Part shown: positions 628-43,314 of the stretch, in pieces
Layout of the letters: every line of letters starts with the position of its first letter
Position numbering within the stretch: the first letter of the stretch is position 1
Assembly: GCA_964496595.1 (NCBI GenBank)
Contig: CAZCAI010000001.1
Location: forward strand, 22,514 to 86,513
Length of the DNA: 64,000 bases
Direction: 5' to 3'
From: an uncultured Anaerolineales bacterium
GTDB taxonomy: Bacteria > Chloroflexota > Anaerolineae > B4-G1 > SLSP01
Program-made: the position numbers and the translations under genes
Notes under the pieces: generated by a model
Told to the model about the DNA's origin: nothing
The model's database searches: none
The model's input: the letters and a program-made list of their open reading frames with translations, nothing else

Positions 628-1455
628 ATGCTCTGCAAAATCGCCACCCCGTCTATTGACGGGGTGATGGTTGAGGCTTGCATAGCACAATCTATATGCA
701 AAATATCATTGCATTGGGCGAGATGCGCAATCTGCGCAATCATAGAAAATCCCGGAGAACCTGCAACCTATACACATCGTAAGAAGAATCATCGGATTGA
801 TCTCTTTCTGTTCGGCCTCTACATTGGACTCGCCGTCGGCGGTGCGGCCACGCTGATCACGTGTGAGCGCGTCGCAGCGGATCGCGTCGATTGCGCGACG
901 CAGCCCGCGCCCCTGGGCATCCCGCTCTCGGTGGGCGTGATGCACACGCTTACCGATGTTCAGGAGGTCACGACCTTCGATTATGAGGGCCTGGGGCGGA
1001 AATTCCAACTGGCGTTCGAGACCTCGGAAGGGGTCGTCTATCTTCGCGAGGAGATGACCGTCAACGAGCAGGAGACGGCGGCGCGCATCAACGCCTTCCT
1101 TCAGAATCCCGCCGCCGATGCGTTGCGGTTCAATTATGTCGATTGGGTGAGCGTGGCGGTGGGGGTTCTCGTGGTCGGTGGCATCTTGGGTGTCTATCCC
1201 GGCCTCTATCTGCTGTCGCCAAGAGGAAACCTGGGCCGCATGGTTGTCGGTGGGCGAATCGCTCCCGATCCCCGACGCCCGCAGCGCGGCTGCCGATCGT
1301 CGTCGCTCCGCCAGCGCCACGCGGAGAAGCAACCGCAGTGTCTTTTACCTCAAGGTGAGCACGGCGGATGGCGTCGCCACCGCTATCGAGTACTTCAGCC
1401 TCGGTGCAGCCAGGGAGGACGCGAAATGGATCAATGCTCTTATCGCCGAACCTGA
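628..1455 (+). CDS. Hypothetical integral membrane protein, 5' reading frame. The downstream part of this ORF looks non-coding and the protein likely continues in the +1 frame (see 1178..1582).
   Basis: ORF of 275 aa with two clear TM helices (LFLFGLYIGLAVGGAATLI; VSVAVGVLVVGGILGVYPGLYLL). After ~nt 1230 the translation becomes Arg/Pro-rich and third-position GC preference is lost. Confidence 0.45.
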   Translation: MLCKIATPSIDGVMVEACIAQSICKISLHWARCAICAIIENPGEPATYTHRKKNHRIDLFLFGLYIGLAVGGAATLITCERVAADRVDCATQPAPLGIPLSVGVMHTLTDVQEVTTFDYEGLGRKFQLAFETSEGVVYLREEMTVNEQETAARINAFLQNPAADALRFNYVDWVSVAVGVLVVGGILGVYPGLYLLSPRGNLGRMVVGGRIAPDPRRPQRGCRSSSLRQRHAEKQPQCLLPQGEHGGWRRHRYRVLQPRCSQGGREMDQCSYRRT

Positions 1456-5920: not shown

Positions 5921-6025
5921 ATATAGGCGATAAGTGGTCTGGTCAATCACGAACTTGTCTCCAAAGGCATTGGGGATCCGGAGTTGGCTCCCCATTTAGT
6001 TCACGTGGTAAAGTGTGGTGGCGTG

Positions 6026-22288: not shown

Positions 22289-25200
22289 TCATCCCTCTCT
22301 TGTGACGAGCGGCAGGTAGATGATCTCCCCGTCGCTTTCCTCGCTGCTGGCGCCGAATACGGCGAACTCGCTGAGATGGCAGACCGGCGCGACCAGGAGA
22401 TTGCGATCTACATCTGGCGTGTAGCTGGGAACAGGCGGCCCGCAGGCGTTAGCCACATCGTCCCAATCGCTGAGGCTCTCGTTCCAGTAGGTGAGGCGCA
22501 AGGTGGTCTCGTCCTCGATGCCGGCGTTCATCCAATCCTCGTCACGATAGTGAATCGTAACGGTGATCTGTCCGCCGATTTGAGGCGATGCCTCCAGAGC
22601 GAACCCCCGACCAATAAAACCAAGACCGGAGGTGAACGGATGGGTGAGGGTGATATGCGGCGTGTATGTGAAGACCGTCTCCTCGCTCAATGTGCCGCTG
22701 GGGATCTCTATCGTCGTCGTCACCCCGGTCGTGTCGGTGAAGATCGTCGTCCCACCCGACGGGCCGACCGTGAACGCCTCCTGGATAAGAATCGTGTGCG
22801 TGCCGAAGGCGCTCCCGGCGTCATTGCTGGCGGTCACCGTGATGGTCTTGGGGCCGGGGTTGGCCCAGGTGCGATTCTTGAGGACGATGCTCCGTCCCAG
22901 GTTGTAGGGGCCTAGGATCCCCTCGTGGCCTGTGTATTTGACGTAGTAGGTGAGCGGCGTCGTGACATCGAGGGGATCGACCGTGATGGTGAAGGTGTAA
23001 AACTCGTTGGTTCTGCCGATTGTTGGCCCATCAATGTTGACGGCGGTTGGTGCGCCGGGCGCCGGGGCCTCACTGATGGTGATCGTGTGCGTGCCGATGG
23101 CGCTGCCGAGGTCGTTGCTGGCCGTCACTGTGATGGTCTTGGGCCCGGGCGTGGGCCAGGTGCGATTTTTCAGGATGATGCTTCGACCCAGCGTGGCTTC
23201 CAGAGGTGCGCCTTGGAGATCCGTGTAATCGATGACGTAGGTGATCGGTGTCGTGACGTCGATGGGATCGACCGTGATTGTGAATGTGTAAGATTCATTG
23301 GTATAGCCGACGGTGGGGCCACTGATGTTCACGCTGCTGGGCGCCGTCGGGACGGGCGTGCCGCTGCCGGAGAGATTGACCTCGGTGCGGATGCCACGTC
23401 CCTGCCAGGTGGGTGTGCCGCTGTCGGGCGTCAACGCGAGCGGCGTGGTGCTCAGGGGAAGAAAAGCCTTGAAGGTGAGGGCGTCGCCCACATTCGCGCC
23501 TTCGTCGCTCGTAGTCGTCGCGTCGTCGCCGTAGGCGTGCAGGAAGCCGTACTGCCCGGCTTCGGTCAGGATAAAATCGCCGATGTAGACGCTGTCGGGA
23601 TCGTAGACGGCCACAATCGTGCCCACAGGCGCAGGGCTGCCATCGATGGTGATCACGCCCCAAAAGTCAGACCACTCATCGGTCGCGACGTAGGGCATTG
23701 TGACCTCTAGATTGACCTCTTTCTGGTCTACGCCTGAGTTCCACACCGTTGATTTGGACGGCGTAGCCAAGCGCCCATTGATCGTAAAGCGAACTTCATC
23801 CCCATCCGCTATGCCTTCATCCCCCGGCGTGTTGGGATCGTCCACGTAGGTGTGGAGGAAACCGTAATATGGCGGCGTATGCACGGTAAACGCGCCGGCG
23901 ACAATGCCATCTGGATCGTAGGCGACCACGCGGGCGTTGCAAGGTGCAGAAAAGCCACTGAGGGATGCAACGCCGTAGAAGTCAACCCACTCAGTGGTCG
24001 GCGTAAAAAAATATGAGCTTGCTGCTCCTTGTGATATATCAGCGGATGATGGGGGGATGGCCGGTCGTCTGACCGGTGTGTCGGCGCCTGGATAGGTCAG
24101 GATCGGTGCGCTGGCCCCCTCGCTGATCTTGATCCAGTAGGCATACCCCGGCTCCATCATCGTCAGGTCGCTGAATTGCGGCTGGCCGGGCATATAGCTC
24201 TTGGCGCCGCCATCGAAGCTGCGGACGAGGTCGTAATCGCCGCTGATGCTCTCCAACGCCTGGGTGACGACCATCGTGATATCGGGCAGGTAGCTGACCA
24301 GATTCCAGCCCTCGTAGAGTTGGATGGACGTATCATCGCGCGCCGGTTCGTAGGTCAAGGTCAGCGTCTGGGTCGTCGCCGCTGTGATGTGAATCCAGTA
24401 GCCGTGCGCCACATCGATGGTGGTCAGATCGCTGGCGTCGGGATTGCCGGGATCGAAGGTCTTGCCGCCGCCGGATGGCCCGCCATCGAAGGCCAACACC
24501 AGATCGTACTGCCCCGCCAGGCTGCTCAACACCTGGGTGATCGCCGGATCGGGCGGGGTGACGTCAATCGAAAAGAGGTTCCAGCCGGGAGCTAAATCGT
24601 GGATAAACGTAGCGTCGGGCGCGTAGGCCGGGGACATCAACGTGGTCGTGCCGGAGAGATAATCGCCGATAACGTAATCATCCTGCGTGGTGGCCGCGAC
24701 GCGGATGCCGTGATTGGCCGGCAATGGCGCATCTAACGTGGCGGTGAAGCGCGCCGTGCCCGTCACGTTATCGATCACGGCGATGGTCAGCAATTCTAAG
24801 GCGTCCTGTTCATCGTCCAGGTCATCCAGATACAGCTCGACCAGGCAGTTGGGGCAGTCGCTGCCTGCCTCGGTCTCGCCGACGACCTGCGTGCCATCGA
24901 TGCTCACGATGCGCGGCGGATCAAACAATCGCAACGCTTCGGGGATGGCGGGGCCGTATTCGATCACCTTGGTAGTGCTGTCGCGCACGATGTTGTTGCG
25001 CAGCGTGAATTGGCGGGCGAGCGGCGAGCTATCGTTGACGAAGATCGCGCCCTCCGTAGGGTCATCACTCTCAGCGACGAAAAAGCTGGTTTTCGCATTG
25101 ACGATGGTGTTGGTCATCACCTGAATGCCCTGGCCGGTGACGAAGATCCCCTGGCCGCAGGCGCCGACCTCATTGCCCAGCCCATCGATGCCGATGGTGT

Positions 25201-26308
25201 TGTGCTCGAAAAGATTGTCGGCGCCCGCCGTCCATATCGCGGGCGGTGCGGTTTCGGTCGGGGAGTGGGGGCGATGGATGCCCGCGAGGGTGTTGTAGCG
25301 GACGATGTTGTTGCTGCCGCTGGAGAACTCGATCCCCGTCCCGCCGTACCACTGCGCGGGGTTGTAGAGGTTGGAGGCGACGCACGTGAGCCGATCCGCA
25401 GGGACGCTCGTATCGCCCCGCGTGCCGATGTAGTTGTATTGGATGATGTTGTTGTCCCCCTGCACAGAGACCCCGCTGTTGGAGCCGGTGACAATCGTGC
25501 CGCTGATCGTGTTGCCATCGCCCTGGATGGTGATGCCGCCGCCGGCCAGGGTAATATCGGGGTTCGTGCCGGGGACGATCTCCGTGCCGGCGGCGTTCAG
25601 GCCCACCCAAACCTCTTCGACCAGGTTGCTGCCGCCCACGCCGGAGACATCGTTCAAGAAGATACCGCCGCCGCCCTGGAAGGCCAGATTGCGAATGGTG
25701 TTGTGATTGACGCCCACCAGGTCAAAGGAATGCGTGCTGCTGATGACAATTTTGGGATCGCCGGTCGTGCGCCCGCCGGGCTGCGTGTCGCCATCGATGG
25801 TGATGTAACTATCGGGGTTGGCGGGATTGTCAAGATCCCCCACCACGATGGCCTCGCCGCCGGAACTGCTGGAATAGTCGGCGTCCATTACGATGGCCCA
25901 CGTTTGCGTGTCGGCGTGATAGTGTGTATCGGTCAATGGGAGGTTGAATTTGATGAGAATCGGGCGATCCGCCATCGGGCGATGGCTGGCCTCCACTAAG
26001 GCGCGCCGGAGGTTACATTTGCCATCACTGGCTGCGAAAAATGGACTTTGTGTGAAATAGCACGTCCTGGTCTGCGTCTCGCCGCTGGTGTCCTCCGTCG
26101 TGTTGATGGTGATGACGGTGGTGTAGTTCAGCGGCGCGCGGGCGCTGATGGGAGCGGAGAAAGGCTCCATCAGCGGCGTCAGGTCACGCTCTTGCGTCTC
26201 GATTGGATCGAGCCGCATGGCGTCGACGGCATCGTACCTCGTCGCCACGGCGCTCGATAGGAGCAAGAGCAGAGAGATAAGCGTTATCTGCCAGATTCTG
26301 CGTTTCAT
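22289..26308 (-). CDS. Very large secreted multidomain protein with right-handed beta-helix repeats, tandem PKD-like domains and internally duplicated modules. Probably a cell-surface or adhesin-like protein.
   Basis: 1339 aa. Signal peptide (MKRRIWQITLISLLLLLSSAVA). PbH1-like NxxGxxxxG repeats. Two ~95-aa PKD-like repeats (...TFTITVDP.DVTTP.TY...KTITVTASND.GSA.GTHTI). Other duplicated ~70-aa modules. GGAGGGG RBS. Confidence 0.85.
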   Translation of the reverse strand: MKRRIWQITLISLLLLLSSAVATRYDAVDAMRLDPIETQERDLTPLMEPFSAPISARAPLNYTTVITINTTEDTSGETQTRTCYFTQSPFFAASDGKCNLRRALVEASHRPMADRPILIKFNLPLTDTHYHADTQTWAIVMDADYSSSSGGEAIVVGDLDNPANPDSYITIDGDTQPGGRTTGDPKIVISSTHSFDLVGVNHNTIRNLAFQGGGGIFLNDVSGVGGSNLVEEVWVGLNAAGTEIVPGTNPDITLAGGGITIQGDGNTISGTIVTGSNSGVSVQGDNNIIQYNYIGTRGDTSVPADRLTCVASNLYNPAQWYGGTGIEFSSGSNNIVRYNTLAGIHRPHSPTETAPPAIWTAGADNLFEHNTIGIDGLGNEVGACGQGIFVTGQGIQVMTNTIVNAKTSFFVAESDDPTEGAIFVNDSSPLARQFTLRNNIVRDSTTKVIEYGPAIPEALRLFDPPRIVSIDGTQVVGETEAGSDCPNCLVELYLDDLDDEQDALELLTIAVIDNVTGTARFTATLDAPLPANHGIRVAATTQDDYVIGDYLSGTTTLMSPAYAPDATFIHDLAPGWNLFSIDVTPPDPAITQVLSSLAGQYDLVLAFDGGPSGGGKTFDPGNPDASDLTTIDVAHGYWIHITAATTQTLTLTYEPARDDTSIQLYEGWNLVSYLPDITMVVTQALESISGDYDLVRSFDGGAKSYMPGQPQFSDLTMMEPGYAYWIKISEGASAPILTYPGADTPVRRPAIPPSSADISQGAASSYFFTPTTEWVDFYGVASLSGFSAPCNARVVAYDPDGIVAGAFTVHTPPYYGFLHTYVDDPNTPGDEGIADGDEVRFTINGRLATPSKSTVWNSGVDQKEVNLEVTMPYVATDEWSDFWGVITIDGSPAPVGTIVAVYDPDSVYIGDFILTEAGQYGFLHAYGDDATTTSDEGANVGDALTFKAFLPLSTTPLALTPDSGTPTWQGRGIRTEVNLSGSGTPVPTAPSSVNISGPTVGYTNESYTFTITVDPIDVTTPITYVIDYTDLQGAPLEATLGRSIILKNRTWPTPGPKTITVTASNDLGSAIGTHTITISEAPAPGAPTAVNIDGPTIGRTNEFYTFTITVDPLDVTTPLTYYVKYTGHEGILGPYNLGRSIVLKNRTWANPGPKTITVTASNDAGSAFGTHTILIQEAFTVGPSGGTTIFTDTTGVTTTIEIPSGTLSEETVFTYTPHITLTHPFTSGLGFIGRGFALEASPQIGGQITVTIHYRDEDWMNAGIEDETTLRLTYWNESLSDWDDVANACGPPVPSYTPDVDRNLLVAPVCHLSEFAVFGASSEESDGEIIYLPLVTREG

Positions 26309-26320
26309 CGTAAACCCCTC

Positions 26321-26374
26321 CTTGGTTTCCTTGGTTTCCTTGGTTTCCTTGGTTTCCTTGGTTTCCTTGGTTTC
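26321..26374. repeat. Perfect 9-bp tandem repeat x6 (CTTGGTTTC on the + strand; GAAACCAAG on the gene strand) immediately upstream of the RBS of the giant secreted-protein gene.
   Basis: Read directly from the sequence. Ends 4 nt before GGAGGGG and 13 nt before the start codon. Confidence 0.8.
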
Positions 26375-26392
26375 CTGAAAAAACTGTGAGAT

Positions 26393-26629
26393 TCAAGTAC
26401 CCGTTTGAGTTTCATTGGCTTCACCCCCGTGCGACTTTAGTTCATCGTTATCCTCCTCTGTATCGATTTGGATTTGGAGAAACGCGCACAGATCTTTTAG
26501 GCTAGCGAACGCTTGGCGCTCCCCGTTGAACGGATTTTCGATGGAGGCCCGCCAGACTGCATCGCTTTCGTTGCCCGTTCGCCAGATGCGCAGCAGATAG
26601 GATAGATAGTCTCTCCGTTGTCTTGTCAT
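26393..26629 (-). CDS. Small hypothetical protein (78 aa), co-directional with and upstream of the giant secreted-protein gene.
   Basis: ORF with GC3 bias. N-terminal basic segment (YLSYLLRIWRTG...WRASIENPFNGERQAFASLKDLCAFL) and acidic tail. Confidence 0.5.
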   Translation of the reverse strand: MTRQRRDYLSYLLRIWRTGNESDAVWRASIENPFNGERQAFASLKDLCAFLQIQIDTEEDNDELKSHGGEANETQTGT

Positions 26630-26661
26630 ATTCGTTACCCGTCAATTTCATCATAATGATC

Positions 26662-26683
26662 GAACGTCAGGGAAACGTCAGGG
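26662..26683. promoter_or_regulatory. Two direct repeats with 11-bp periodicity (GAACGTCAGGG AAACGTCAGGG). Candidate SARP-binding heptamer repeats that replace the -35 of the minus-strand promoter for the 26629 operon.
   Basis: Read directly from the sequence. On the minus strand the repeats lie ~6 bp upstream of a TATGAT -10-like hexamer. The adjacent divergent gene encodes a SARP-family regulator. Confidence 0.4.
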
Positions 26684-26785
26684 GCACGGCTTTTTTGCTA
26701 CGGAGGGCAACTATCGATATAATGAGGATAGGGTGTTATACCTGAGTCGTCGCCAGAGAAATATTGTCCAAATATAAAGTGAACT

Positions 26786-29700
26786 ATGGCTCAACTTTCG
26801 ATAAGTTCTTTAGGTCCCTTCCGCGCCACGCTGGATGGGGAACCGATCACCAGCTTTGAATCCAACAAAGTGCGGGCGTTGTTGGTCTATCTCGCGATGG
26901 AATCCGACTATCCTCACAGCCGGGAGACGTTGGCGGGATTTTTCTGGCCTGAGCAATCCGAATCTAACGCCCGGCACAACCTGCGCCAGGCGCTCTGCAA
27001 CCTGCGCCAGGTTATTCGTGATCGCGACGCGGACATCCCCTTCCTGCACGTCACGCGCCGGACCGTGCAGTTCGCTCCCGATAGTGACTATTGGCTGGAT
27101 GTGGCTATGTTCAGCGACTATATCGGGGCCAGCGAGGCGCATGCTCATTATCGTCTGGAGACGTGTGGGTCTTGTCGCGAGCAGCTAGAGAAGGCGGCCG
27201 AACTCTATCGGGGCAGCTTTTTGGAGGATCTCTTCGTGGAGGGGAGTATTCCATTCGAGGATTGGGCCTTGCTCCTACGAGAGCGATTTCATCGCCTGGT
27301 GATCGACGCGCTCTATCATCTGGCCCGTCATTACGAGCGCCGCCGAATGTATGACCGGGCGCGACGCTACGCTCGGCGGCAGGTGGAGTTGGAGCCTTGG
27401 CGCGAGGAAGCGCATCAGCAGTTGATGCGTCTGCTGGCTCACAGCGGGGAGCGCAGCGCCGCGCTGACCCAGTACGACCTCTGCCGCCGCATCTTGGCGA
27501 AGGAACTAAACGTCGCGCCGCACCCGGAGACGACGGCGCTCTATGAGCGCATTCGAGCGGCGGGCAGCGCCAGCCCCCACAATTTACCGCCTCAGTTGAC
27601 CCCCTTGATCGGGCGGGAAGAAGAGTTGAGCGAGATTGCGGAGCGGCTGGCCGATCCGGCGTGCCGCCTGTTGACCCTGACCGGGCTGGGCGGTGTCGGA
27701 AAGACGCGATTGGCCCTGCAAGCAGCTCAGGAACACATTGGGGCTTTTTTGCACGGCGTCTACTTTGTCCCGTTGGCGACTTTAAACTCGACCACGCTCA
27801 TTGTCCCTACGATGGTCGATGCGCTTGGATTTTCTCTCTCCGGCGAGCAGCCCCCTGAGACGCAACTCCTGAACTATTTGCGGGAAAAAGAGATGCTCCT
27901 GGTGCTGGATAGCTTTGAGCATCTTCTGGAGGGCGCCGATGTGCTTTTGGACATCCTCAGACACGCCCCCGCCGTCAAGCTGATCGTCACATCTCAGGAG
28001 CGGTTGAATTTTCGGGCGGAGTGGATCTTTCAGGTGGATGGATTGTCTTTGCCAGACAAAGATGTCGTCGCAGGCGCTGAGGCCTCCGGCGCGGTGCGAC
28101 TTTTCTTCGAGCGCGCCCGGCGCGTGGCCCCGGGTTTTTCAATATCGGATGCGACGATGCCGGCGGCGATTCGCATCTGCCAGTTGGTGGGCGGCATCCC
28201 CTTGGGCATCGAACTGGCCGCCGCCTCTCTCCTCACCCGCTCGTGCGAGCAAATTGCCTTGGAGATCGAACGCAACATCGATATATTGACCACGATGATG
28301 CGGGATGCGCCTGAACGCCATCGTAGTATGCGCGCGGTTTTCGAGCATGCCTGGAATTTGCTTGCCCCAGAGGAACAGCAGATCCTGCGGAAATTGACAG
28401 TCTTTCGCGACGGCTTCGAGGCGCAGGCCGCTCGGAGCGTGGCTCACGTATCTCCTTGGCGCCTGACGTCGCTGGTGAGCAAATCTCTCCTGCGGAAGAA
28501 TTCCGTCGGACGGTATGCAATTCACGAGCTTATCAAACACTTTGCCGGAGAGAAATTAGATGAACATCCGCCCGAAAAAGAGATGGCCGGGGAGCGTCAC
28601 GGCGAATACTACACATCATTTCTTCATCAGAGAGAAGGAGCGTTGCAGGCCGGACAACAGCATGAGGCTTTAGACGAGATCAGCACCGAAATTGAGAACG
28701 TCCGGGCTGCCTGGCGATGGGCCGTGGCGCACAAGGAGCTTGGCGCTATCGATGCGGGGTTGGAAAGCCTCTACTACTTCTATTGGGCGCGGAATTGGTT
28801 TCGCGAGGGCCAGGAGATCTTTGGGCAGGCGGAACGCGCCGTTCTGAGTGCGGGAGAAAAAGATGCGCTGCTTCTGGCGAGGATTTGGACGCGCCAGGCG
28901 GAGTTCGATGCCTGGCTCACTCACTACGACGCAGCGGAGAGGCGATTGCGGAAGAGTATCCAGATGTGTCGCTCGCTTCAAGCGCGGCGCGAATTGGCGT
29001 TCGCGCTTGAGATGTGGGGCCGAATCGAATACTGGCAGGGGAAATATACATCATCACGGGATCATGTGCAGGAAAGCCTGGCGCTTTATCGTCAGGTTGA
29101 TGACAAGGTCGGCGTAGCGCAGGCGCTCAACAGTTTAGCCAATGTGCTCTGTGATCTAGATGCCGATTATGATCAAGCCCAAGTGCTCTACGAAGAGAGT
29201 CTGTCAATCGCGCGCGAGATCGGCGATCAGTTTGGCGTGGCCAAGGCGCTCGTCAATCTGGGGGCATTGATGCAGGAGTTGGGGGCTTATGAAGAGGCGA
29301 AACGATTTTATGAGGAGAGTCTGACGCTTTATCGTAAAATCGATTATCGGCATGGAATCTCGGCGTCGCTCAGCTATGTGGGGCAGGCGACCAGTTTGCT
29401 GGGCGAGCATGCGTTAGCTATAGAATTGCTCCAGGAGAGTCTGAACCTCAATCGAGAGACGGGCGACCGCCACGCGATGGCGGAGCGGCTAAAGCAGTTG
29501 GGCAGCGTCGCGTGCCGGATGGGGGTTTATGAGCAAGCGAAGGCGTACTTTGATCAGGCCTTGAGATTGGCAGTCGCGATCCATTCGCATCAGGTCATTT
29601 TAGATGTCTTGATTAGCATGGCTGATCTGTTTCATCAATCCCAGGAATTCCAGGAATCCCAGGACAAAGGGAAAAAGGCGTATGCCGCCTTGGCGTATGC

Positions 29701-29890
29701 CTTGGAGCTTTTGGCCTGTGTCAAGCACCAGGCCACGTGTGGACAAGAGTGTCAGGATCGCGCCGCCGGCTTGCTCCCGGCATTGGTATCCGCGCTTCCC
29801 CCCGCGATGGTGGCCGCGTGCTGGCAGCGGGGACAGGCTAAGACGTTGGACGCGATGGTGACGGAAATCCTGGCGGATCATCTGGTGTGA
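26786..29890 (+). CDS. SARP/AfsR-like STAND regulator: OmpR-type wHTH, BTAD, NB-ARC ATPase and TPR repeats.
   Basis: N-terminal wHTH (LGPFRATLDGEPI...NKVRALLVYLA). BTAD (DYWLDV...LYRGSFLED). Walker A GLGGVGKTRLA. C-terminal TPR-like repeats (ALNSLANV..., AKALVNLGAL...). Confidence 0.85.
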   Translation: MAQLSISSLGPFRATLDGEPITSFESNKVRALLVYLAMESDYPHSRETLAGFFWPEQSESNARHNLRQALCNLRQVIRDRDADIPFLHVTRRTVQFAPDSDYWLDVAMFSDYIGASEAHAHYRLETCGSCREQLEKAAELYRGSFLEDLFVEGSIPFEDWALLLRERFHRLVIDALYHLARHYERRRMYDRARRYARRQVELEPWREEAHQQLMRLLAHSGERSAALTQYDLCRRILAKELNVAPHPETTALYERIRAAGSASPHNLPPQLTPLIGREEELSEIAERLADPACRLLTLTGLGGVGKTRLALQAAQEHIGAFLHGVYFVPLATLNSTTLIVPTMVDALGFSLSGEQPPETQLLNYLREKEMLLVLDSFEHLLEGADVLLDILRHAPAVKLIVTSQERLNFRAEWIFQVDGLSLPDKDVVAGAEASGAVRLFFERARRVAPGFSISDATMPAAIRICQLVGGIPLGIELAAASLLTRSCEQIALEIERNIDILTTMMRDAPERHRSMRAVFEHAWNLLAPEEQQILRKLTVFRDGFEAQAARSVAHVSPWRLTSLVSKSLLRKNSVGRYAIHELIKHFAGEKLDEHPPEKEMAGERHGEYYTSFLHQREGALQAGQQHEALDEISTEIENVRAAWRWAVAHKELGAIDAGLESLYYFYWARNWFREGQEIFGQAERAVLSAGEKDALLLARIWTRQAEFDAWLTHYDAAERRLRKSIQMCRSLQARRELAFALEMWGRIEYWQGKYTSSRDHVQESLALYRQVDDKVGVAQALNSLANVLCDLDADYDQAQVLYEESLSIAREIGDQFGVAKALVNLGALMQELGAYEEAKRFYEESLTLYRKIDYRHGISASLSYVGQATSLLGEHALAIELLQESLNLNRETGDRHAMAERLKQLGSVACRMGVYEQAKAYFDQALRLAVAIHSHQVILDVLISMADLFHQSQEFQESQDKGKKAYAALAYALELLACVKHQATCGQECQDRAAGLLPALVSALPPAMVAACWQRGQAKTLDAMVTEILADHLV

Positions 29891-29949: not shown

Positions 29950-32900
29950 CTATCTGGCGCGATGCCTCACGGCCCTTTCTTCTACTGGAGAAAGCTCGCC
30001 CGGCGTGGGCGGATAGCGCTCGCGGAAATCCTCGGCGCAGTTGTCGTGATCGTAGTAGGGCGGGTGACGCTCCAGCGAGGCGCTGGATACCGCGACGCCG
30101 GGGTGGGGCGCGACGCCGGGATAGGTCGCATCCCCCCAGACGAGGACATCCACCGGCGTGTCATCCGGTCCCAGCAACAGCACCTGATCCCCGTCATTGC
30201 GAAGCCCCCACGTAGCCCATTCCTGGCCCCAGGGCGTGTAGCGAATCATATCGGTGACGCTGGTGGTGTGGTACATCTCGAAGTTGGCTTCGGGCACCTC
30301 GGAGGCGTTCACCGCCACGACGATGACGCCCTGTGGCGGTATTTCTGCGCCGGGCGGGAATTGGAACATCACCTCGGCCCGATCCGGCGTCTCGGCGTCG
30401 CCGATTTTGTAGGGGTGAAGATCGATGGTTTCCGGGGTGGGATTGTACAATTCGACCCACTCTTGCCCCACGTTGGACGCGCCCGGCGTGTAGAAGACCT
30501 CGCTGATCACTAAGTAATCGACGGGCGGCGGCGGCGGTGTGTAGTTGTGCATCACCAAGGGAAGGTAGATCGGAGTGGCCTGCCCCCAATCGAACCGGAA
30601 CATTCGGAGCAGATAATCATAGACCCCCTCGGATTGGATCTGAATCGCGACCTCGCGGTTAAGCTTGCTGGAGGTCTCGCTGCCGTTGATCGAGCCGAGA
30701 TGGACGTACTGCCCCTCGTCCTGCAAGTCGACCAGCACCATCTTGATGTGAATCCCCTCGCCGGTGGCGTCGCCGGACGCCGCCTGGAGATTGAGATTTT
30801 CCTCGCGGGCAATGCGCCGGACGTAGCTGATGGTCTCGCGACTCTCGATGGGCGCCTCTTCGGTGTAGGGCGCGAAGTTCTTCCCGTTGACCAGGATCCG
30901 CACCTCAGCGCCCCGGCGCGCTGCATCGATGTAGGCTTTCATCCGCAGATTCGGGCTATTGCCCCACGTGGCGTATTCATAGAGCTGCTCTACGTAGACC
31001 TTATCCCCGGCGCCCGCGCGCCCGACCAGGCCCAGGAGCGCGTCGTTTTGGCGCAGCGCCGCCTCTGGCGCGGTGAGCAACTCGAAGGGAAAGGTCCCGT
31101 GCAAGACCAACGGCTGGCTGAACCGAACTGTGTAGGTCATCGCGTCCGGCTGCGCCAGATCGACCATCTCCGGCGTCGGTGGGCCGTATTTATCCACGAA
31201 GGCCGTATTCCAGCGCACCAGATCGTTGTGATGCGCCGGATCTAAATCCAGGTCGAAGATCGTGCGCGCGCGCTCCACCACCGACGGCGCGGTGGTCGCG
31301 ATCACAGCGCCCCGCGAACCGTAGGTGCCGTTGCTTTTGTCATCGCCGGGGAGACCGCCCCAGGTGAAATTCTGAGAGCTGACCACGGCCCACGTATCGT
31401 CCACGATGATAAGCTTGGCGTGCAGGTACTTGTAACGGTTGAAGATCCGATCGGGGATGGGAATGCTTTCATCTGTCTCGTGGGCCATAAACCAGCACGC
31501 GCCGCCGGCCGCCTCGATCTGCTGGCAGGCGTAGAGTTCCGTGTGCCAGTCGGTGTTGTTCCACCCGCCGACGATCCCGCCCTCCAGCAGGAGCGTCACG
31601 CTCACGCCCGCTTCCGCTTTTTGGACCAGCGCCTCGACGAGGCTGGGATGGCGTAGGGAGTACATCTCGATGGCGATGCTCTCCTCCGCCCGCATCAGCG
31701 TCTCCGAGATGACCTCGAAGGCGTTGTCCGGCGCGATGCCGACGACGATGGTCGCCGTCTCGGTGGCCGTGAGCGGCCAGAAGAGGGGATCGAGGTCCCA
31801 GCCGGGATAGCGCACGCGGCGACCGTGCGTGATGTTGCCGGTGGTCTGGAGCCAATCGGCGGCGGTGTCGGTGTCGGCGATGGGCAGGCCGGTCGCTTCG
31901 TCGGGAATGCGGGCGAGGATCTGCCCCTCCTCGCGACCCACGCCATACGGCGCGACGCCCGGCCCTGTCCAGCCGGCGATGGGCGTCTTCCCCGCTTTGT
32001 AGACCATCGCGTCAACGATGATTTCGTCCGCGTCGCGCAAGAGCACCTCATCCCCGCTGTCATTCGTCAAGCCGGGACTCGTGAACCAGTCATCACCTAG
32101 CGCGTAATCCGGCGGGAAGCCAAAGGCGGCGGCGAAGCCCATGATCTCTTTGGCCAGCCAGACGCGCTGCTGGCGCTCGAGCGTCATTGTGGGGATCGGA
32201 TGGCACTCGTACGCATCACTTTTGTCCCTGCACAGTTCCCATCCGGCGAGCGTGGCCGGCGCCGTGCCGACGTTGATCAATTGGACGGCCTCGCCTGCCG
32301 GCTCCGGCGCGTAGCCGTCGTAGAGCACGCCGTTGATGAGCACCCGCGGCTCGCCGACCTGGGTCGTCCAGGCGGCGGCATCGTTGTCGGGGTGGGGATC
32401 ATCGCTGGCCGTCGTCGCGGCAAGATGATAGGTGAGCAGGCCGGCGGCCTCGGCGGAGATGTGGACGCTCACGGTGAGCGGGACCGTCGCGCCCGGTGCG
32501 AGATCGCCCACGCGCCAGATCAGCTTTCCGGGCGGGTGCATCTGGATCGTGCCATAGTTGGGCGTGTGACCGACGACTGTCGCCTCGGCGGGGTAGGTGT
32601 AGGTGAGCGCCACGTTATCCGCGCGCAGCTCGCCCACATTCGCCACGGTGAGATCGTAGCGCTGCGTCGAGCCAGCCGTCGCCGTGACGGGGCCGGTCAA
32701 TGCGACAGCGACATCGGCGGCGATGGGGCTGACGGTCGTGGTGCAGCGCGCGCTCGTGTACGGCGCGGGCGAAGGCGTGCGCGTCGTCGCCGTGATCCGG
32801 TTGACGAGGTCGCCGCCCGGCGCTGTGGGCGCGACCTGGCCTATCACCGTGATGGCGTAGGGTGTGCCGGTCATCACCGCGCCGAGATCCCAGTGCAAAG

Positions 32901-33741
32901 CGCCCGCGGCTTGGGTGAACGTAAACTCACTGCTCTGGGTGATGAAGTGGACGTCGGCGGGGAGGGTGTCCGTCAGGCGCGTCTGCTCGGCGATATGGCC
33001 GCCGGTGTTGGTGAGCGTGACGTGGTAAGTGATGACCTCGCCCGCCGTGCGCGTGATCGGCCCGCTCTTGCGGATCTGCAGCTCGGCCCGCTCCTGAAAC
33101 GGAATCACATAGACGGAGTTCCGCGCTTTCGGCGTCCCCAGGATGGAATTTCCGTCGGCGTCGAGGCCGTTGATTGTGACGCCGTCGTTGGTCGCCCAAT
33201 TGTCTGATGTGTCGGGCAGCGTCGGGTCGATGCGCTCCATCGTGATCCTTGCATCTTTATTGCCAGCCGGCCAGGTCCCGCCATCGGCGTTGGCCGTGTC
33301 GATGATTTCATCGACGGCATTGGTGAGCGTGAGGATTTCGCCATCATTGCTGAGACCATAGCCGAATCCAGTTGTTAAATTTGCAGGGATGTCGGCGACC
33401 GTCTCGTCATTTGTACGCTCGATAAGATAAAAGCCTTGAGGGGCGATCTTTCCTATAAGATCAAGGGTCATACCATCGTTGCTTGTGATCCGCCAACCGT
33501 CCAAGGTGATTGTCGCCGCCGTCGTGTTGTATAATTCGATCCACTCATCGGAGGCCGATGCTGCTGTTCCCATCCACGCTACCTCATTGATGACGACCTC
33601 GCGCGTCGCATCTGTTGCCGCCGGCAATGCCGCCTGCACGGTCGCCTGCGAGGTGGGGGCGAGCATCACACTCAAGGTTACCCAGATCAACAAAAGTCCG
33701 CCAACTACGGCTAACATCATCCGACATCCACGGGTTTGCAT
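29950..33741 (-). CDS. Secreted multidomain protein: three lamin-tail domains, DUF11 repeats, and a phospholipase-D-superfamily domain with two HKD motifs.
   Basis: 1263 aa with a signal peptide. LTD-like segments (VVINEVAWMG...DEWIELYN; VLINGVLYDG...; LVISEVFYTPG...QEWVELYN). DUF11-like (TYHVTLTNTG). HKD motifs YLHAKLIIVDD and HIKMVLVDLQD...GSINGS. Confidence 0.75.
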   Translation of the reverse strand: MQTRGCRMMLAVVGGLLLIWVTLSVMLAPTSQATVQAALPAATDATREVVINEVAWMGTAASASDEWIELYNTTAATITLDGWRITSNDGMTLDLIGKIAPQGFYLIERTNDETVADIPANLTTGFGYGLSNDGEILTLTNAVDEIIDTANADGGTWPAGNKDARITMERIDPTLPDTSDNWATNDGVTINGLDADGNSILGTPKARNSVYVIPFQERAELQIRKSGPITRTAGEVITYHVTLTNTGGHIAEQTRLTDTLPADVHFITQSSEFTFTQAAGALHWDLGAVMTGTPYAITVIGQVAPTAPGGDLVNRITATTRTPSPAPYTSARCTTTVSPIAADVAVALTGPVTATAGSTQRYDLTVANVGELRADNVALTYTYPAEATVVGHTPNYGTIQMHPPGKLIWRVGDLAPGATVPLTVSVHISAEAAGLLTYHLAATTASDDPHPDNDAAAWTTQVGEPRVLINGVLYDGYAPEPAGEAVQLINVGTAPATLAGWELCRDKSDAYECHPIPTMTLERQQRVWLAKEIMGFAAAFGFPPDYALGDDWFTSPGLTNDSGDEVLLRDADEIIVDAMVYKAGKTPIAGWTGPGVAPYGVGREEGQILARIPDEATGLPIADTDTAADWLQTTGNITHGRRVRYPGWDLDPLFWPLTATETATIVVGIAPDNAFEVISETLMRAEESIAIEMYSLRHPSLVEALVQKAEAGVSVTLLLEGGIVGGWNNTDWHTELYACQQIEAAGGACWFMAHETDESIPIPDRIFNRYKYLHAKLIIVDDTWAVVSSQNFTWGGLPGDDKSNGTYGSRGAVIATTAPSVVERARTIFDLDLDPAHHNDLVRWNTAFVDKYGPPTPEMVDLAQPDAMTYTVRFSQPLVLHGTFPFELLTAPEAALRQNDALLGLVGRAGAGDKVYVEQLYEYATWGNSPNLRMKAYIDAARRGAEVRILVNGKNFAPYTEEAPIESRETISYVRRIAREENLNLQAASGDATGEGIHIKMVLVDLQDEGQYVHLGSINGSETSSKLNREVAIQIQSEGVYDYLLRMFRFDWGQATPIYLPLVMHNYTPPPPPVDYLVISEVFYTPGASNVGQEWVELYNPTPETIDLHPYKIGDAETPDRAEVMFQFPPGAEIPPQGVIVVAVNASEVPEANFEMYHTTSVTDMIRYTPWGQEWATWGLRNDGDQVLLLGPDDTPVDVLVWGDATYPGVAPHPGVAVSSASLERHPPYYDHDNCAEDFRERYPPTPGELSPVEERAVRHRAR

Positions 33742-41200: not shown

Positions 41201-43314
41201 ACTACTACTTCGGCTTCGTGCTGGTCGGCGCGCTGATCAAGGCGCTGGGCATCGTACCCAGCATCGGCTACAACCTGGCGATCCCGATGCTCTTCGCGAT
41301 GACGGGGGTGGGGGCCTACACTTTGGCCTCCAATCTGGCCGGGGACGGCGAACGCCGCGGCCATCGGGCCGGCCTGCTGGGAGTGTTGCTCGTGCTGCTC
41401 CTGGGCAACTTAGGCGAGATACGGTTGCTCCAGGCCGGATTTGCAAAGATCGGCGATGTACAATTCGATAGTCTAATTCCCGGCTATTCCACCTGGGTCT
41501 CGGCTCTGGTTGGCGTCTGGAAAGTCCTCTTCGAGGGGGAGCGACTGATGTTCCGCACCGAGTGGTGGTACTGGAACGCCACCCGCATCCTGACGGCCAC
41601 AGGCAGCGACATCGGCGCGATCAACGAGTTCCCGATCTTCTCATTCCTCTATGGCGACCTTCACGCGCACGTGATGGCCTATCCGCTGACGCAGTTGGCT
41701 TTAGCTATCGCAATCCAGTGGGCCGTGGGGATTCAACACAGGCTGCGCGTTACGCCTCAGGGCTGGCGCGCCTATCTGAGTGAGCTTCTACCGCGGCCTC
41801 TTGGCTCTTTCTTCTTCGCGGCGTTGATCGCCGGCGCGCTTCGCGCGACCAACACCTGGGATTATCCCACCTACATCGGCGTGATGAGCGTCGCCCTGCT
41901 CTTAAACGTCTTTTTTTCATTAGAGTCCGCCAGATCAGTAAGCAAAGCTGCTGAATCTGCCGATGAAGCAGATCAGACAGAAACCATAGAGGAAACTAAA
42001 TCTGCGCCGCCTATGCCGCCTATGCCGCCTATGCCGCCTATGCCGCCTATGCCCCAGTGGCTTTGCGCTGCGCTCAAATTAGCCACGCCTTTTCTGATCG
42101 TCGCCCTGGCCGAGCTGTTGTTTCGTCCCTTCACCGCGAATTACGCCGTCGCTTATAGCGCCTTCGAGCGCTGGGAAGGGGGGCGCACGCCCGTGGGGAA
42201 ATACCTGATTATGCACGGGCACTTCCTCTTCCCCATCACGTTGTTGGCGCTGGCGGAAGGGTGGGGCGCTATTCGGGGCTGGTTCGGGGAAGGGATTGAT
42301 CTCGCGGAAGAGAGCTTCTTGGAGAGATCTAACACCGTTGCCTGGTGGTCGGTCGTCATCGTAGCGGCACTGCTATTGATGAGCATTTTGCTGATCTTAG
42401 AAGTGCAGGTTGCGTGGATCGCCGTGCCGCTGGGCGTCATCGCCGGAATATTGGTCATCGCGCCGGATACGGCCCCGCGCGCTCGATTACTGTGGTTTAT
42501 GACCGGCTCCGCGATGGCGCTCAGCTTGATGGTGGAGCTGTTAGTACTGCGCGGCGACATCGGGCGGATGAATACGGTCTTCAAGTTCTATCTTCAGGTG
42601 TGGATGTTGCTGGCGCTCAGCGCTGCCGTCGCTGTCGAGCGATTGCTGCATCTGGTGATGTCGGCGCCTGAAGCGATGACCGGGGAGAACCCACTGAAGC
42701 GCCTCTATCGCGATACGTGGGTGGGGGACGCCATCATCGTCGGCCTAACGCTGCTCCTCTTCGCGACGGCGCTTTATACAGCCCTGGCGCTGCCGGCGCG
42801 CGTGCGCGATCGCTGGCGTCCAGAAGCGCCGCACACGTTGGATGGAGCGGCTTATATGTCCTACGCGGTACAATATGAACAAGGCAGTGAGATTCCATTG
42901 CGTGTGGACGCGGGCGTGATCCGCTGGCTTCAGGAGAACGTGAGCGGCTCCCCCACGATCATCGAGGGGCAGGCAGAGCGCGAGTATCTCTGGGGCAATC
43001 GGGTCAGCGTTTATACCGGCTTACCGGCGGTGACAGCGTGGCGCTGGCACCAGGTTCAGCAGCGGATGGCGATGCCGGGCGGCGTCGTGGAGCAGCGGCA
43101 GATGGACATCCGCAGCTTCTACAACACGCCCGATCCGAAGGTCGCGCGACAGATTCTGGAGCGCTACGAGGTCGAGTACGTCATTATGACGCCCTATGAA
43201 CGAGCCTATATGCTGCCGGAGGGTGAGACCAAATTCGCGCCGATGGTCAAGCGGGGCTGGCTGGAGATCGTCTACAAAACCGCTGAGGCTACGATTTATC
43301 GCGTGGGGCCGTGA
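38218..43314 (+). CDS. Very large polytopic membrane protein, GT-C-fold glycosyltransferase-like (DUF2298/ArnT/PMT-like N-terminal domain), with an internal (PMP)n repeat.
   Basis: 1698 aa with >20 predicted TM helices. N-terminal loop motif HPDERYLT after TM1 is typical of GT-C enzymes. The family assignment is inference. Confidence 0.7.
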   Translation: MNIIDTNKTTRETISLSPRIFYTFLLLIFLVAGAFRFYQLDWDVGTHLHPDERYLTMVAGAIRFPESLSQYWDTSSSPLNPANHESFAGYVYGTLPLFVTRAVGEALDSACADPAGLGGRLVRAFLASPEMCSPGRFTGYSGIHLVGRALSSVADLMTLLALILLARMLYGDRVALLSGALYACAVLPIQHAHFFVVDSFAAVFVIWTLTLAMYAIHSDQMWSLMLAGVTTGLAVACKISVWPVAGMVGLAGLIFRRQDETTGRAYYALDLTAPRVVALVLSGIGAALAFRIAQPYAFAGPGFISLRLNPHWLDNMRSIQRLVTGQADAPPGHQWANRARIIFPARNMIVWGLGLPLGLTAWIAWAVMGWRTLRQQQWRHLLPWSWGTLFFLYQGTQWVKSMRYLLPIYPVFVLFAAWLLVQLTRKTWTRPRIDKIWRIGSRVLRGGVLLGAALWAVAFLQIYARPVTRIEASEWMFDNLPTAITLKTIQGVKIQVPIRELTLNKASASVRLSIPWSHPEAQPEHIMLNKVSGVGVAGEREIRIILAEDPHQQTILAEAIATADVPALGNTSVTALLPASMREWTADEDLYLFIDLLSGPAIKLETSVIANEHWDDPLPLRIDGRDPFGNWYQGVTAMHGGLMTLYDNDTIEKREQLLNALDEVDYIALSSNRLYGSIPRLPMRYPLTTAYYDALFDGSLGFKLLAKFVSYPALGPCQFPDQESPFEIPPATYTNALPCSVPLPPAEEAFSVYDHPRVLIFAKTPAYSRANAEFALPASLLNDVQWMTPRDATRGSAGEESAKLIMSPEMREAQESGGTWSQLFNRDAWHNRFQPLAVLLWWMMVTLLGWMGFVALYHIFPALRYRGYGLGKAAGLLLWAYPAWLLAGVYLVPHMRVLLWAVFFVEIGIAAAVVRNKFPEFRTFVLTHWRALLRIEGIFLTLFLVWVGMRYLNPDLWHPVVGGEKPMDLAYLNAVIKSTWFPPYDPWFAGGVMNYYYFGFVLVGALIKALGIVPSIGYNLAIPMLFAMTGVGAYTLASNLAGDGERRGHRAGLLGVLLVLLLGNLGEIRLLQAGFAKIGDVQFDSLIPGYSTWVSALVGVWKVLFEGERLMFRTEWWYWNATRILTATGSDIGAINEFPIFSFLYGDLHAHVMAYPLTQLALAIAIQWAVGIQHRLRVTPQGWRAYLSELLPRPLGSFFFAALIAGALRATNTWDYPTYIGVMSVALLLNVFFSLESARSVSKAAESADEADQTETIEETKSAPPMPPMPPMPPMPPMPQWLCAALKLATPFLIVALAELLFRPFTANYAVAYSAFERWEGGRTPVGKYLIMHGHFLFPITLLALAEGWGAIRGWFGEGIDLAEESFLERSNTVAWWSVVIVAALLLMSILLILEVQVAWIAVPLGVIAGILVIAPDTAPRARLLWFMTGSAMALSLMVELLVLRGDIGRMNTVFKFYLQVWMLLALSAAVAVERLLHLVMSAPEAMTGENPLKRLYRDTWVGDAIIVGLTLLLFATALYTALALPARVRDRWRPEAPHTLDGAAYMSYAVQYEQGSEIPLRVDAGVIRWLQENVSGSPTIIEGQAEREYLWGNRVSVYTGLPAVTAWRWHQVQQRMAMPGGVVEQRQMDIRSFYNTPDPKVARQILERYEVEYVIMTPYERAYMLPEGETKFAPMVKRGWLEIVYKTAEATIYRVGP
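42007..42051 (+). repeat. In-frame 9-bp tandem repeat x5 (CCGCCTATG) encoding PPMPPMPPMPPMPPM within the 38218 gene.
   Basis: Read directly from the sequence. Confidence 0.8.

Follow-up and report, generated by a model that had tools for sequence, protein, structure and literature searches.

SARP regulators, in which a winged helix-turn-helix (wHTH) domain is joined to a BTAD domain, bind direct repeats that have a spacing of 11 or 22 bp, the 3' one lying 8 bp from the -10 element (PMC10936776). In the best-studied case, the afs box bound by AfsR, two 11-bp repeats occupy -40 to -19 and the first 8 bp of each are contacted (PMC10936776). AfsR activates afsS, and the AfsS protein, which carries two to five repeats of 12 amino acids (aa) that are needed for AfsR binding, in turn binds AfsR and makes it bind target promoters more tightly (PMC10832544). 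SARPs are described as 'exclusively found in actinobacteria' in a 2024 review (PMC10972967), and a 2026 survey of AfsR-like regulators includes Actinomycetota only. Here we describe an AfsR-like SARP gene from an uncultured Anaerolineales bacterium of the phylum Chloroflexota, located in a 64,000-nucleotide stretch of contig CAZCAI010000001.1 (hereafter the window), together with a divergent gene for a 78-aa small protein, a pair of 11-bp direct repeats between the two genes, and a predicted exported protein encoded beyond the small protein. It is likely that these elements form a self-contained regulatory cassette of Anaerolineae-type Chloroflexota, in which a SARP controls a small protein and an exported protein. 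The features of the cassette in the window are as follows.

26786-29890, plus strand: AfsR-like large SARP regulator, 1034 aa (Pfam, structure alignments).
26695-26723, plus strand: sigma-70-like promoter of the regulator gene, TTGCTA-17-TATAAT (promoter scan, 10/12 matches).
26683-26673 and 26672-26662, minus strand: putative SARP box of two 11-bp direct repeats, the upstream repeat (DRup) CCCTGACGTTT and the downstream repeat (DRdown) CCCTGACGTTC.
26655-26650, minus strand: -10 hexamer TATGAT, 6 bp past the box and 20 nt ahead of the ATG.
26393-26629, minus strand: 78-aa small protein with the motif YLSYLLRLW..WRASLE..GER.GFASL..L..FL, the first gene past the box.
22289-26308, minus strand: 1339-aa protein; signal or anchor at its N-terminus (MKRRIWQITLISLLLLLSSAVA), a region of beta-helix-like repeats, and PKD-like domains in repeated copies.

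The locus resembles the AfsR-afsS system of Streptomyces coelicolor and S. avermitilis in having a regulator with SARP, NB-ARC and TPR domains that aligns with AfsR over its full length, a target promoter with two 11-bp repeats at about -40 to -19, 6 bp to the -10 and no functional -35 (PMC10936776), and an adjacent primary target that is a small protein without a DNA-binding domain (PMC10832544). It differs in phylum (Actinomycetota there, Chloroflexota here), in its operon, which runs on into exported proteins, and in its small protein, a predicted beta-beta-beta-alpha domain that is not a homologue of the 12-aa-repeat protein AfsS. In Streptomyces, afsS follows afsR in the same orientation; the small gene here is divergent from the regulator gene. 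The small SARPs ActII-ORF4, RedD and DnrI and the SARP-LAL regulators PimR and FilR share the wHTH and BTAD domains, the 11-bp period and the 8 bp to the -10, but their targets are actinomycete antibiotic biosynthetic genes rather than small and exported proteins, and they are unlike the present family also in that WD40 and Tricorn/PD40 sensors occur in the latter. Among the neighbouring genes that were examined, none was identified as a secondary-metabolite gene or as part of a biosynthetic cluster.

The divergent intergenic region is 156 bp long (26630-26785) and carries the repeats, on the plus strand, as GAACGTCAGGG (26662-26672) and AAACGTCAGGG (26673-26683); Tandem Repeats Finder (TRF) likewise reports an array of period 11 at 26663-26683 (1.9 copies, 100% matches). 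Read on the minus strand, the order is CCCTGACGTTT CCCTGACGTTC GATCAT TATGAT, followed by 20 nt and the ATG at 26629. A preliminary description of this DNA had placed 11-bp-period repeats at 26662-26683, about 6 bp upstream of a minus-strand TATGAT and about 20 nt before the small open reading frame (ORF), and position and distances all proved exact. Its count of exactly two repeats holds for the strong copies, alongside which 26684-26694 is possibly a degenerate third (4/11 positions shared, including G.CGT). The repeats fill the place of the -35, and no usable -35 hexamer was found for the small-ORF promoter. With the published spacing of the afs box, 6 bp separate the 22-bp box from the -10, as in the window, so that the SARP-type promoter geometry proposed in the preliminary description matches the published layout (PMC10936776); it also recurs in two independent sets of loci. 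Transcription would start near 26643, giving a predicted leader of about 14 nt.

Within the window, the single 9-mer ACGTCAGGG is not enriched (11 matches with at most one mismatch versus 12.9 expected), and the 20-nt two-repeat pattern is unique (1 match with at most three mismatches versus 0.02 expected). A third exact copy of the 9-mer at 49140 is a lone copy without a repeat pair, and the suggestion that further copies of the repeat pair might mark a regulon found no second box in the window. The contig of a closely related strain (L060, 94% identity over the aligned region including indels) is identical to the window in box, -10 and leader, and has 7 extra bp (CAAAAAA), inserted or duplicated, between the box and the -35 of the regulator. 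This indel moves the regulator promoter and not the -10, and it is therefore the small-ORF promoter, not that of the regulator, with which the box keeps register.

The same layout is found in other Chloroflexota. Two samples were compared, one of 49 genome loci found from the regulator and one of 80 metagenome loci found from the small protein. A hidden Markov model (HMM) of the small protein placed the small ORF upstream and divergent in 22 of the genome loci, the remainder mostly having too little upstream sequence or a match to the N-terminal part of the regulator only. Repeats of period 11 (at least 7/8 matches) are present in 18/22 of these divergent regions, compared with 0.85 in shuffled sequences and 1-4 for other periods. 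Their common layout on the small-ORF strand is an 11-nt repeat, a second 11-nt repeat, 6 nt and TAnnnT, as exemplified by L010 (TCCTGATAGTT TCCTGATATTC GGTCGT TATAAT) and L029 (TCGTGACGTTT TCGTGACGGTA TGTGCT TAAAAT); three or four repeats are present in several loci. An anchored pattern on the small-ORF strand, NCG-N8-NCG-N9-TAnnnT, was scored on 19 genome and 48 metagenome loci, with the gap before TAnnnT varied, as follows.

Genome loci: gap of 9 in 13/19; other gaps (3-16) in 0-4; reverse strand, gap of 9, in 2.
Metagenome loci: gap of 9 in 37/48; other gaps (3-16) in 0-8; reverse strand, gap of 9, in 0.
ACG version, gap of 9: 12/19 genome loci versus 0.007 in shuffles; 22/48 metagenome loci versus 0.03 in shuffles.

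The ACG version was found solely at period 11 in both sets. The distance from the -10 to the small-ORF ATG is 20 nt in the window and just 8-10 nt in L002, L003 and L010, which are therefore predicted to produce leaderless or near-leaderless mRNAs. Two metagenome loci (L122, L124) have no SARP gene upstream and nevertheless carry a TTTTGACG-type box and a -10 at the right geometry, which suggests control in trans from elsewhere; some regulators may thus have regulons that extend beyond one cassette.

The regulator has the AfsR-like order of wHTH, BTAD, NB-ARC and TPR domains that the preliminary description had assigned to it, as confirmed by Pfam and by an alignment that runs from end to end of Streptomyces AfsR (regulator residues 6-934 versus 8k60_I residues 27-976, E 5e-19). 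Its domains and motifs are as follows.

Residues ~1-100, wHTH; 104-257, BTAD; ~273-600, NB-ARC/P-loop; ~713-970, TPR.
26978-27010, plus strand: recognition helix NLRQALCNLRQ, residues 65-75 (alignment to AfsR).
27683-27706, plus strand: Walker A motif GLGGVGKT, residues 300-307, intact (motif position).
27896-27919, plus strand: Walker B motif LLVLDSFE (LLVLD, residues 371-375), intact (motif position).
28517-28543, plus strand: candidate MHD-like motif AIHELIKHF, residues 578-586, placed by eye only.

The BTAD domain (PF03704, E 2e-23) covers profile positions 1-146 of 146, and the remainder of the protein matches NB-ARC (E 2.5e-6), AAA_16 and several TPR families (TPR_12, E 2.7e-31). When the N-terminal 260 residues were searched alone, they matched EmbR of Mycobacterium tuberculosis (2fez, E 1.3e-8) and the AfsR SARP fragment (E 3e-8) in alignments that span regulator residues ~4-258 and include the recognition helix. 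EmbR, a SARP with an FHA domain, regulates the cell-envelope genes embCAB, and a SARP acting outside secondary metabolism therefore has precedent. The EmbR sensor differs from the one here in being an FHA domain controlled by phosphorylation, and we know of no small-protein partner or comparable conserved repeat box for EmbR. The regulator scored 103 bits on the NCBIfam AfsR equivalog model (NF053617; cut-off, 1430 bits) and is therefore a distant relative of AfsR and not its orthologue. Its best relatives among species genomes are all Chloroflexota metagenome-assembled genomes (top identity, 67%), which belong to Anaerolineae, Thermoflexales, Caldilineaceae, Ardenticatenaceae and Ca. Aquidulcis. 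Promoters comparable to that of the regulator gene (9-10/12 matches, with TATAAT) precede the regulators of L001, L002, L003, L006 and L010. We note that an activation-switch motif, F/Y-HD, is described in the NOD of AfsR-type regulators (bioRxiv 10.64898/2026.09.02.748808); its likely counterpart here, judged by eye, is A-I-H-E (residues 578-581), with His-Glu in place of His-Asp. A role in defence was considered and rejected, as PADLOC returned only a generic TPR match for the regulator.

Variation among paralogous cassettes points to the adjacent regulator as the protein that reads each box. Residues R67, Q68 and N72 of the regulator align with R87, T88 and R92 of AfsR, the last two of which contact bases in the AfsR complex (PMC10936776), and the repeat sequence varies in step with the residues at these three positions. 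Where residue 68 is Q, the repeats carry TGACG; R is accompanied by GAACG or AGACG, N by CTGCG or TTGCG, Y by CCACG, and V by CAACG or TAACG. A change of residue 67 from R to S is accompanied by a change of the repeat core from CG to TA (the TGATA class), and residue 72 is linked to the repeat prefix, which is (T/C)CC with N, TTT with H or Y, and CG or GG with R. Across 40 non-redundant pairs, the mutual information between residue 68 and repeat positions 4-6 is 1.46 bits (0.49 permuted) and that between residue 72 and positions 1-3 is 1.22 bits (0.72 permuted), and neither value was attained in any of 5000 permutations. The 6-bp gap hexamer, which is equally linked to the regulator and served as the control, carries no such signal (p = 0.15). 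Recognisable intergenic repeats in cassettes whose SARP domains have a mean identity of 56% would need selection to persist, and it is probable from these comparisons that the adjacent regulator binds its own box.

The small ORF, mentioned in the preliminary description only as the gene driven by the promoter, is itself the conserved partner of the regulator, and it belongs to an extensive family that has no name. One near-identical protein was all that a word-indexed search with the single sequence retrieved, and an exhaustive HMMER search was needed, which returned 2,141 representatives at E ≤ 1e-3. A profile search extended the family to at least 7,653 clusters, all annotated as 'hypothetical' and none with a Pfam domain; the protein of the window likewise has no match in Pfam, NCBIfam or PADLOC. 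Weak partial matches to DUF2517 in 11/43 relatives (best E 0.0043) were judged spurious. Invariant or near-invariant positions include Y8, Y11, L12, L13, R14, W16, W26, R27, A28, R38, F41, L44, L47, F50 and L51. An AlphaFold2 (AF2) model has a core pLDDT of ~90 (residues 11-55) and a beta-beta-beta-alpha order followed by a disordered acidic tail; in this model, the beta-sheet is predicted to bear the conserved Trp and Arg residues, and the N-terminus is basic. A Tat signal was considered for the N-terminal RQRRDYLS and rejected: the twin Arg is not conserved in the family, and R14 interrupts the hydrophobic stretch of the window protein. Domain fusions were also rejected, as the extra length of longer relatives appears to come from mis-called starts or from tandem duplication. 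Tandem two-domain proteins of 125-150 aa are common (P0152-P0205; L055-L057; tandem AF2 model, pLDDT 69). One tandem-form gene follows genes for an AAA_16-TPR protein and a 558-aa protein and has a convergent, not divergent, BTAD-Tricorn gene as its neighbour. In L001, the closest genome relative (67%), an extra ORF of ~125 aa (660-1040, minus strand; MNSFSFSELEAGEE...) lies between the box with its -10 and the small ORF, which is therefore not always the first gene.

The regulator, the 11-bp repeat box, the small protein and exported proteins recur as a unit in many Chloroflexota contigs. Among the 58 metagenome loci with at least 700 bp of upstream sequence, 47 (81%) have a divergent SARP-domain gene within 700 bp upstream of the small ORF, mostly at 100-300 bp. 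The BTAD regulators linked in this way include proteins with other sensors, such as Tricorn/PD40 (581 aa, L050) and nSTAND1-WD40 (1518 aa, L052), and a further divergent BTAD neighbour is an AAA_16-TPR protein of 1182 aa. The sensor domains vary among these neighbours, and the constant partner of the small protein is therefore the wHTH-BTAD module. Tricorn/PD40 and nSTAND1-many-WD40 sensors on SARP domains are not described for Streptomyces SARPs in the literature examined. Across 54 cassettes, SARP-domain identities correlate with small-protein identities (r = 0.84, Mantel p < 0.0005), and the pair is therefore inherited and diversifying as a unit.

The 1339-aa gene starts 84 nt past the small ORF (stop at 26393, ATG at 26308) in the same direction, as the preliminary description had noted with a spacing of 85, and this gap contains no terminator-like site, promoter-like site, Rfam match or stable fold (z = 0.8). 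An RNA element or terminator in the spacer was rejected on the same grounds. The large gene is thus probably co-transcribed with the small ORF, and co-transcription of the cassette is well supported by synteny. In 45/52 non-redundant metagenome cassettes (87%; control ORFs, 8%), the next gene encodes a hydrophobic signal-like N-terminus, many with a lipobox, and the median gap between the small ORF and this gene is 32 nt. The pairing of such a regulator with an exported protein, called unusual in the preliminary description, is therefore common in the family. The downstream proteins are mostly unrelated to one another and include beta-helix proteins, PD40/WD40 propellers, a TPR lipoprotein, a C11 peptidase and an S11 carboxypeptidase. 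The 1339-aa protein has a weak Pfam match to PKD, and its beta-helix-like and PKD-like repeats were read by eye; it shares 45% identity over ~560 aa with the protein encoded at the same position in L010, which itself has a weak Beta_helix match below the Pfam cut-off. Its earlier designation as a surface protein is tentative: the protein has the N-terminal signal or anchor, and no C-terminal anchor was seen by eye.

The spacer ahead of the 1339-aa gene is largely made up of a short tandem array.

26319-26376, minus strand: perfect 9-bp tandem repeat, GGAAACCAA x6.4 (TRF), ending at the GGAGG ribosome-binding site of the 1339-aa gene.

Every GGAAACCAA unit holds AAGGA, which is ribosome-binding-site-like, and L060 has 3.4 copies (782-812) versus 6.4 in the window, a difference of 27 bp. 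The array may tune translation of the large gene or may be a slippage-prone repeat only. A second perfect 9-bp array in the window consists of GCCGCCTAT x5.3 (42005-42052), and in some cassettes short tandem arrays also lie upstream of the box, in the regulator-proximal intergenic DNA, as in L002 (CTGGCAAGATGG, ~4 copies, ~730-800) and L024 (14-bp unit, ~5 copies, ~5930-6000). Tandem repeats were rejected as a feature of the cassette, as perfect arrays turn up only sporadically (21 across 950 kb of related loci, few of them in this position). On the other side of the cassette, the ORF at 29950-33741 (minus strand), convergent to the 3' end of the regulator gene, encodes a protein of 1263 aa that combines Lamin-tail, DUF11 and two PLD-like domains. 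It adjoins the cassette, and nothing was found that ties it to the cassette.

These data suggest the following scheme for the cassette. The regulator gene has its own sigma-70-like promoter, and a basal level of regulator is therefore assumed. A signal would switch on the NB-ARC/TPR part of the regulator, upon which two copies of the SARP domain would bind side by side on both 11-bp repeats, spanning the place of the -35 and the spacer of the divergent promoter (about -40 to -19). In the manner of the AfsR/afsS complex, the bound SARP dimer would then bring RNA polymerase to this promoter, with TATGAT as its -10 and no -35, and by this analogy the regulator is expected to activate rather than repress the small-ORF promoter. 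The transcript from about 26643 would encode the 78-aa small protein first and then, most probably, the 1339-aa exported protein. We tentatively suggest, again by analogy, that the small protein is a non-homologous functional counterpart of AfsS, made from the SARP-dependent promoter and in turn influencing the SARP domain or the transcription complex. The interpretation offered in the preliminary description is upheld overall, in that regulator type, promoter geometry, conservation, cognate pairing and the link to exported proteins each survived testing.

Several observations weigh against this scheme. The Trans_reg_C match of the regulator is weak (E 1.9e-3, 18.7 bits versus the Pfam cut-off of 26.2), and it is the alignments with EmbR and AfsR that assign the regulator a wHTH of the SARP type despite this sub-threshold score. 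No clear Shine-Dalgarno sequence was seen before the small ORF, and the -10 lies 20 nt from its ATG. Misfits to the box layout make up 4-5/22 of the divergent regions derived from the regulator and ~11/48 of the metagenome regions, examples being L019 (period 12), L047 (period 10) and L021. The 1339-aa gene could have a promoter of its own that a simple scan missed. Shared ancestry of the cassettes inflates both the co-variation and the mirror-tree statistics, for which the gap-hexamer control corrects in part. Concerning the small protein, AfsS-like 12-aa internal repeats are absent from it, and Foldseek found no significant relative in the PDB (best E values: single form, 0.87; tandem form, 0.076).

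Other explanations of the box were weighed against the same evidence. PhoB/PhoP boxes are also 11-bp-period direct repeats in place of the -35, read by tandem wHTH domains, and geometry alone cannot separate wHTH families, such that the box might be Pho-box-like and read by another OmpR/PhoB-type response regulator. PhoB and PhoP have a receiver domain and no BTAD, however, and here the protein that co-varies with the box is the adjacent SARP, at residues 67, 68 and 72, the equivalents of the AfsR DNA-contact positions; a divergent SARP gene also stands beside the box in 47/58 independently sampled loci, and no response-regulator gene is a conserved neighbour in the small-protein-side loci that were looked up. 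This explanation is thus very improbable. A box that serves mainly to autoregulate the divergent regulator promoter, with the small ORF expressed independently, is also unlikely, albeit less remote: the box lies 12 bp upstream of the regulator -35 in the window and abuts the regulator start codon in L005, L013, L022 and L029, where a bound protein could block its own transcription, but its distance to the regulator promoter or start varies (by 7 bp in L060, and from ~10 to >100 bp among loci) whereas its spacing from the minus-strand -10 is constant to the nucleotide, and both the window and several relatives have a good -35 for the regulator itself. Some autoregulation may occur alongside activation of the small-ORF promoter. 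That the repeat is a functionless product of chance or slippage and the small ORF not a real gene is hardly credible, given a two-repeat pattern found once where 0.02 are expected, dozens of loci that share the architecture but differ in sequence, and thousands of relatives of the small ORF with invariant W16, W26 and R14; in its favour are the lack of enrichment of the single 9-mer in the window and the short tandem arrays elsewhere in these genomes.

A further alternative concerns the role of the small protein, which might serve the downstream exported protein, either by binding the operon mRNA as a nucleic-acid-binding protein or as a chaperone or targeting factor for the cargo. The signal-like N-terminus in 87% of downstream genes would fit this role, as would the modelled beta-sheet with its conserved Trp and Arg, the basic N-terminus and acidic tail, and a faint, non-significant resemblance to double-stranded RNA-binding domains (dsRBD) and PUR repeats. 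The fold matches are nevertheless far from significant (best E 0.87), and the tightest and most constant partner of the small protein is the SARP domain. The exported proteins are mostly unrelated while the small protein is conserved, and cargo-specific recognition is therefore disfavoured. We regard a role in service of the cargo or its mRNA as rather doubtful, and the proposed action of the small protein on the SARP domain or the transcription complex is carried forward as a working model.

A literature search returned nothing for the YLLRLW motif or for the combination of BTAD, NB-ARC and Chloroflexi, and publications that join SARP and Chloroflexota appeared, by their titles and abstracts, to be unrelated. 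The regulator alone is not new, because BTAD proteins outside actinobacteria are already annotated in databases. New to the literature searched are the conserved Chloroflexota cassette that combines a SARP with an afs-type box, a small protein without a name and an exported protein, the link between recognition-helix residues and repeat sequence, and the small-protein family itself. SARPs are treated in the literature as actinobacterial antibiotic regulators, and the promoter architecture that cryo-EM resolved for AfsR is here seen in Chloroflexota with base-pair conservation. Three positions of the helix vary together with three segments of the repeat, which amounts to a testable code that could aid the design of orthogonal activator and promoter pairs. 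For a family of at least 7,653 clusters without name, model or fold, the linkage to SARPs offers a starting point, and the family may bear on how AfsS-type partners work in Streptomyces. For Anaerolineae without cultured members, the cassettes point to sets of exported proteins whose expression is likely turned on by specific signals. It is conceivable, although we would not presume it, that the YLLRLW..WRASLE proteins are phylum-wide obligate partners of SARPs, expressed from repeat-box promoters and acting in feedback or feed-forward, with several orthogonal cassettes per genome, each with its own repeat code (residues 67, 68 and 72) and different exported proteins or lipoproteins for each signal. 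If so, these data would yield a usable protein-DNA recognition code, and outside Actinomycetota SARPs would have a general role in regulating the cell envelope and the secretome.

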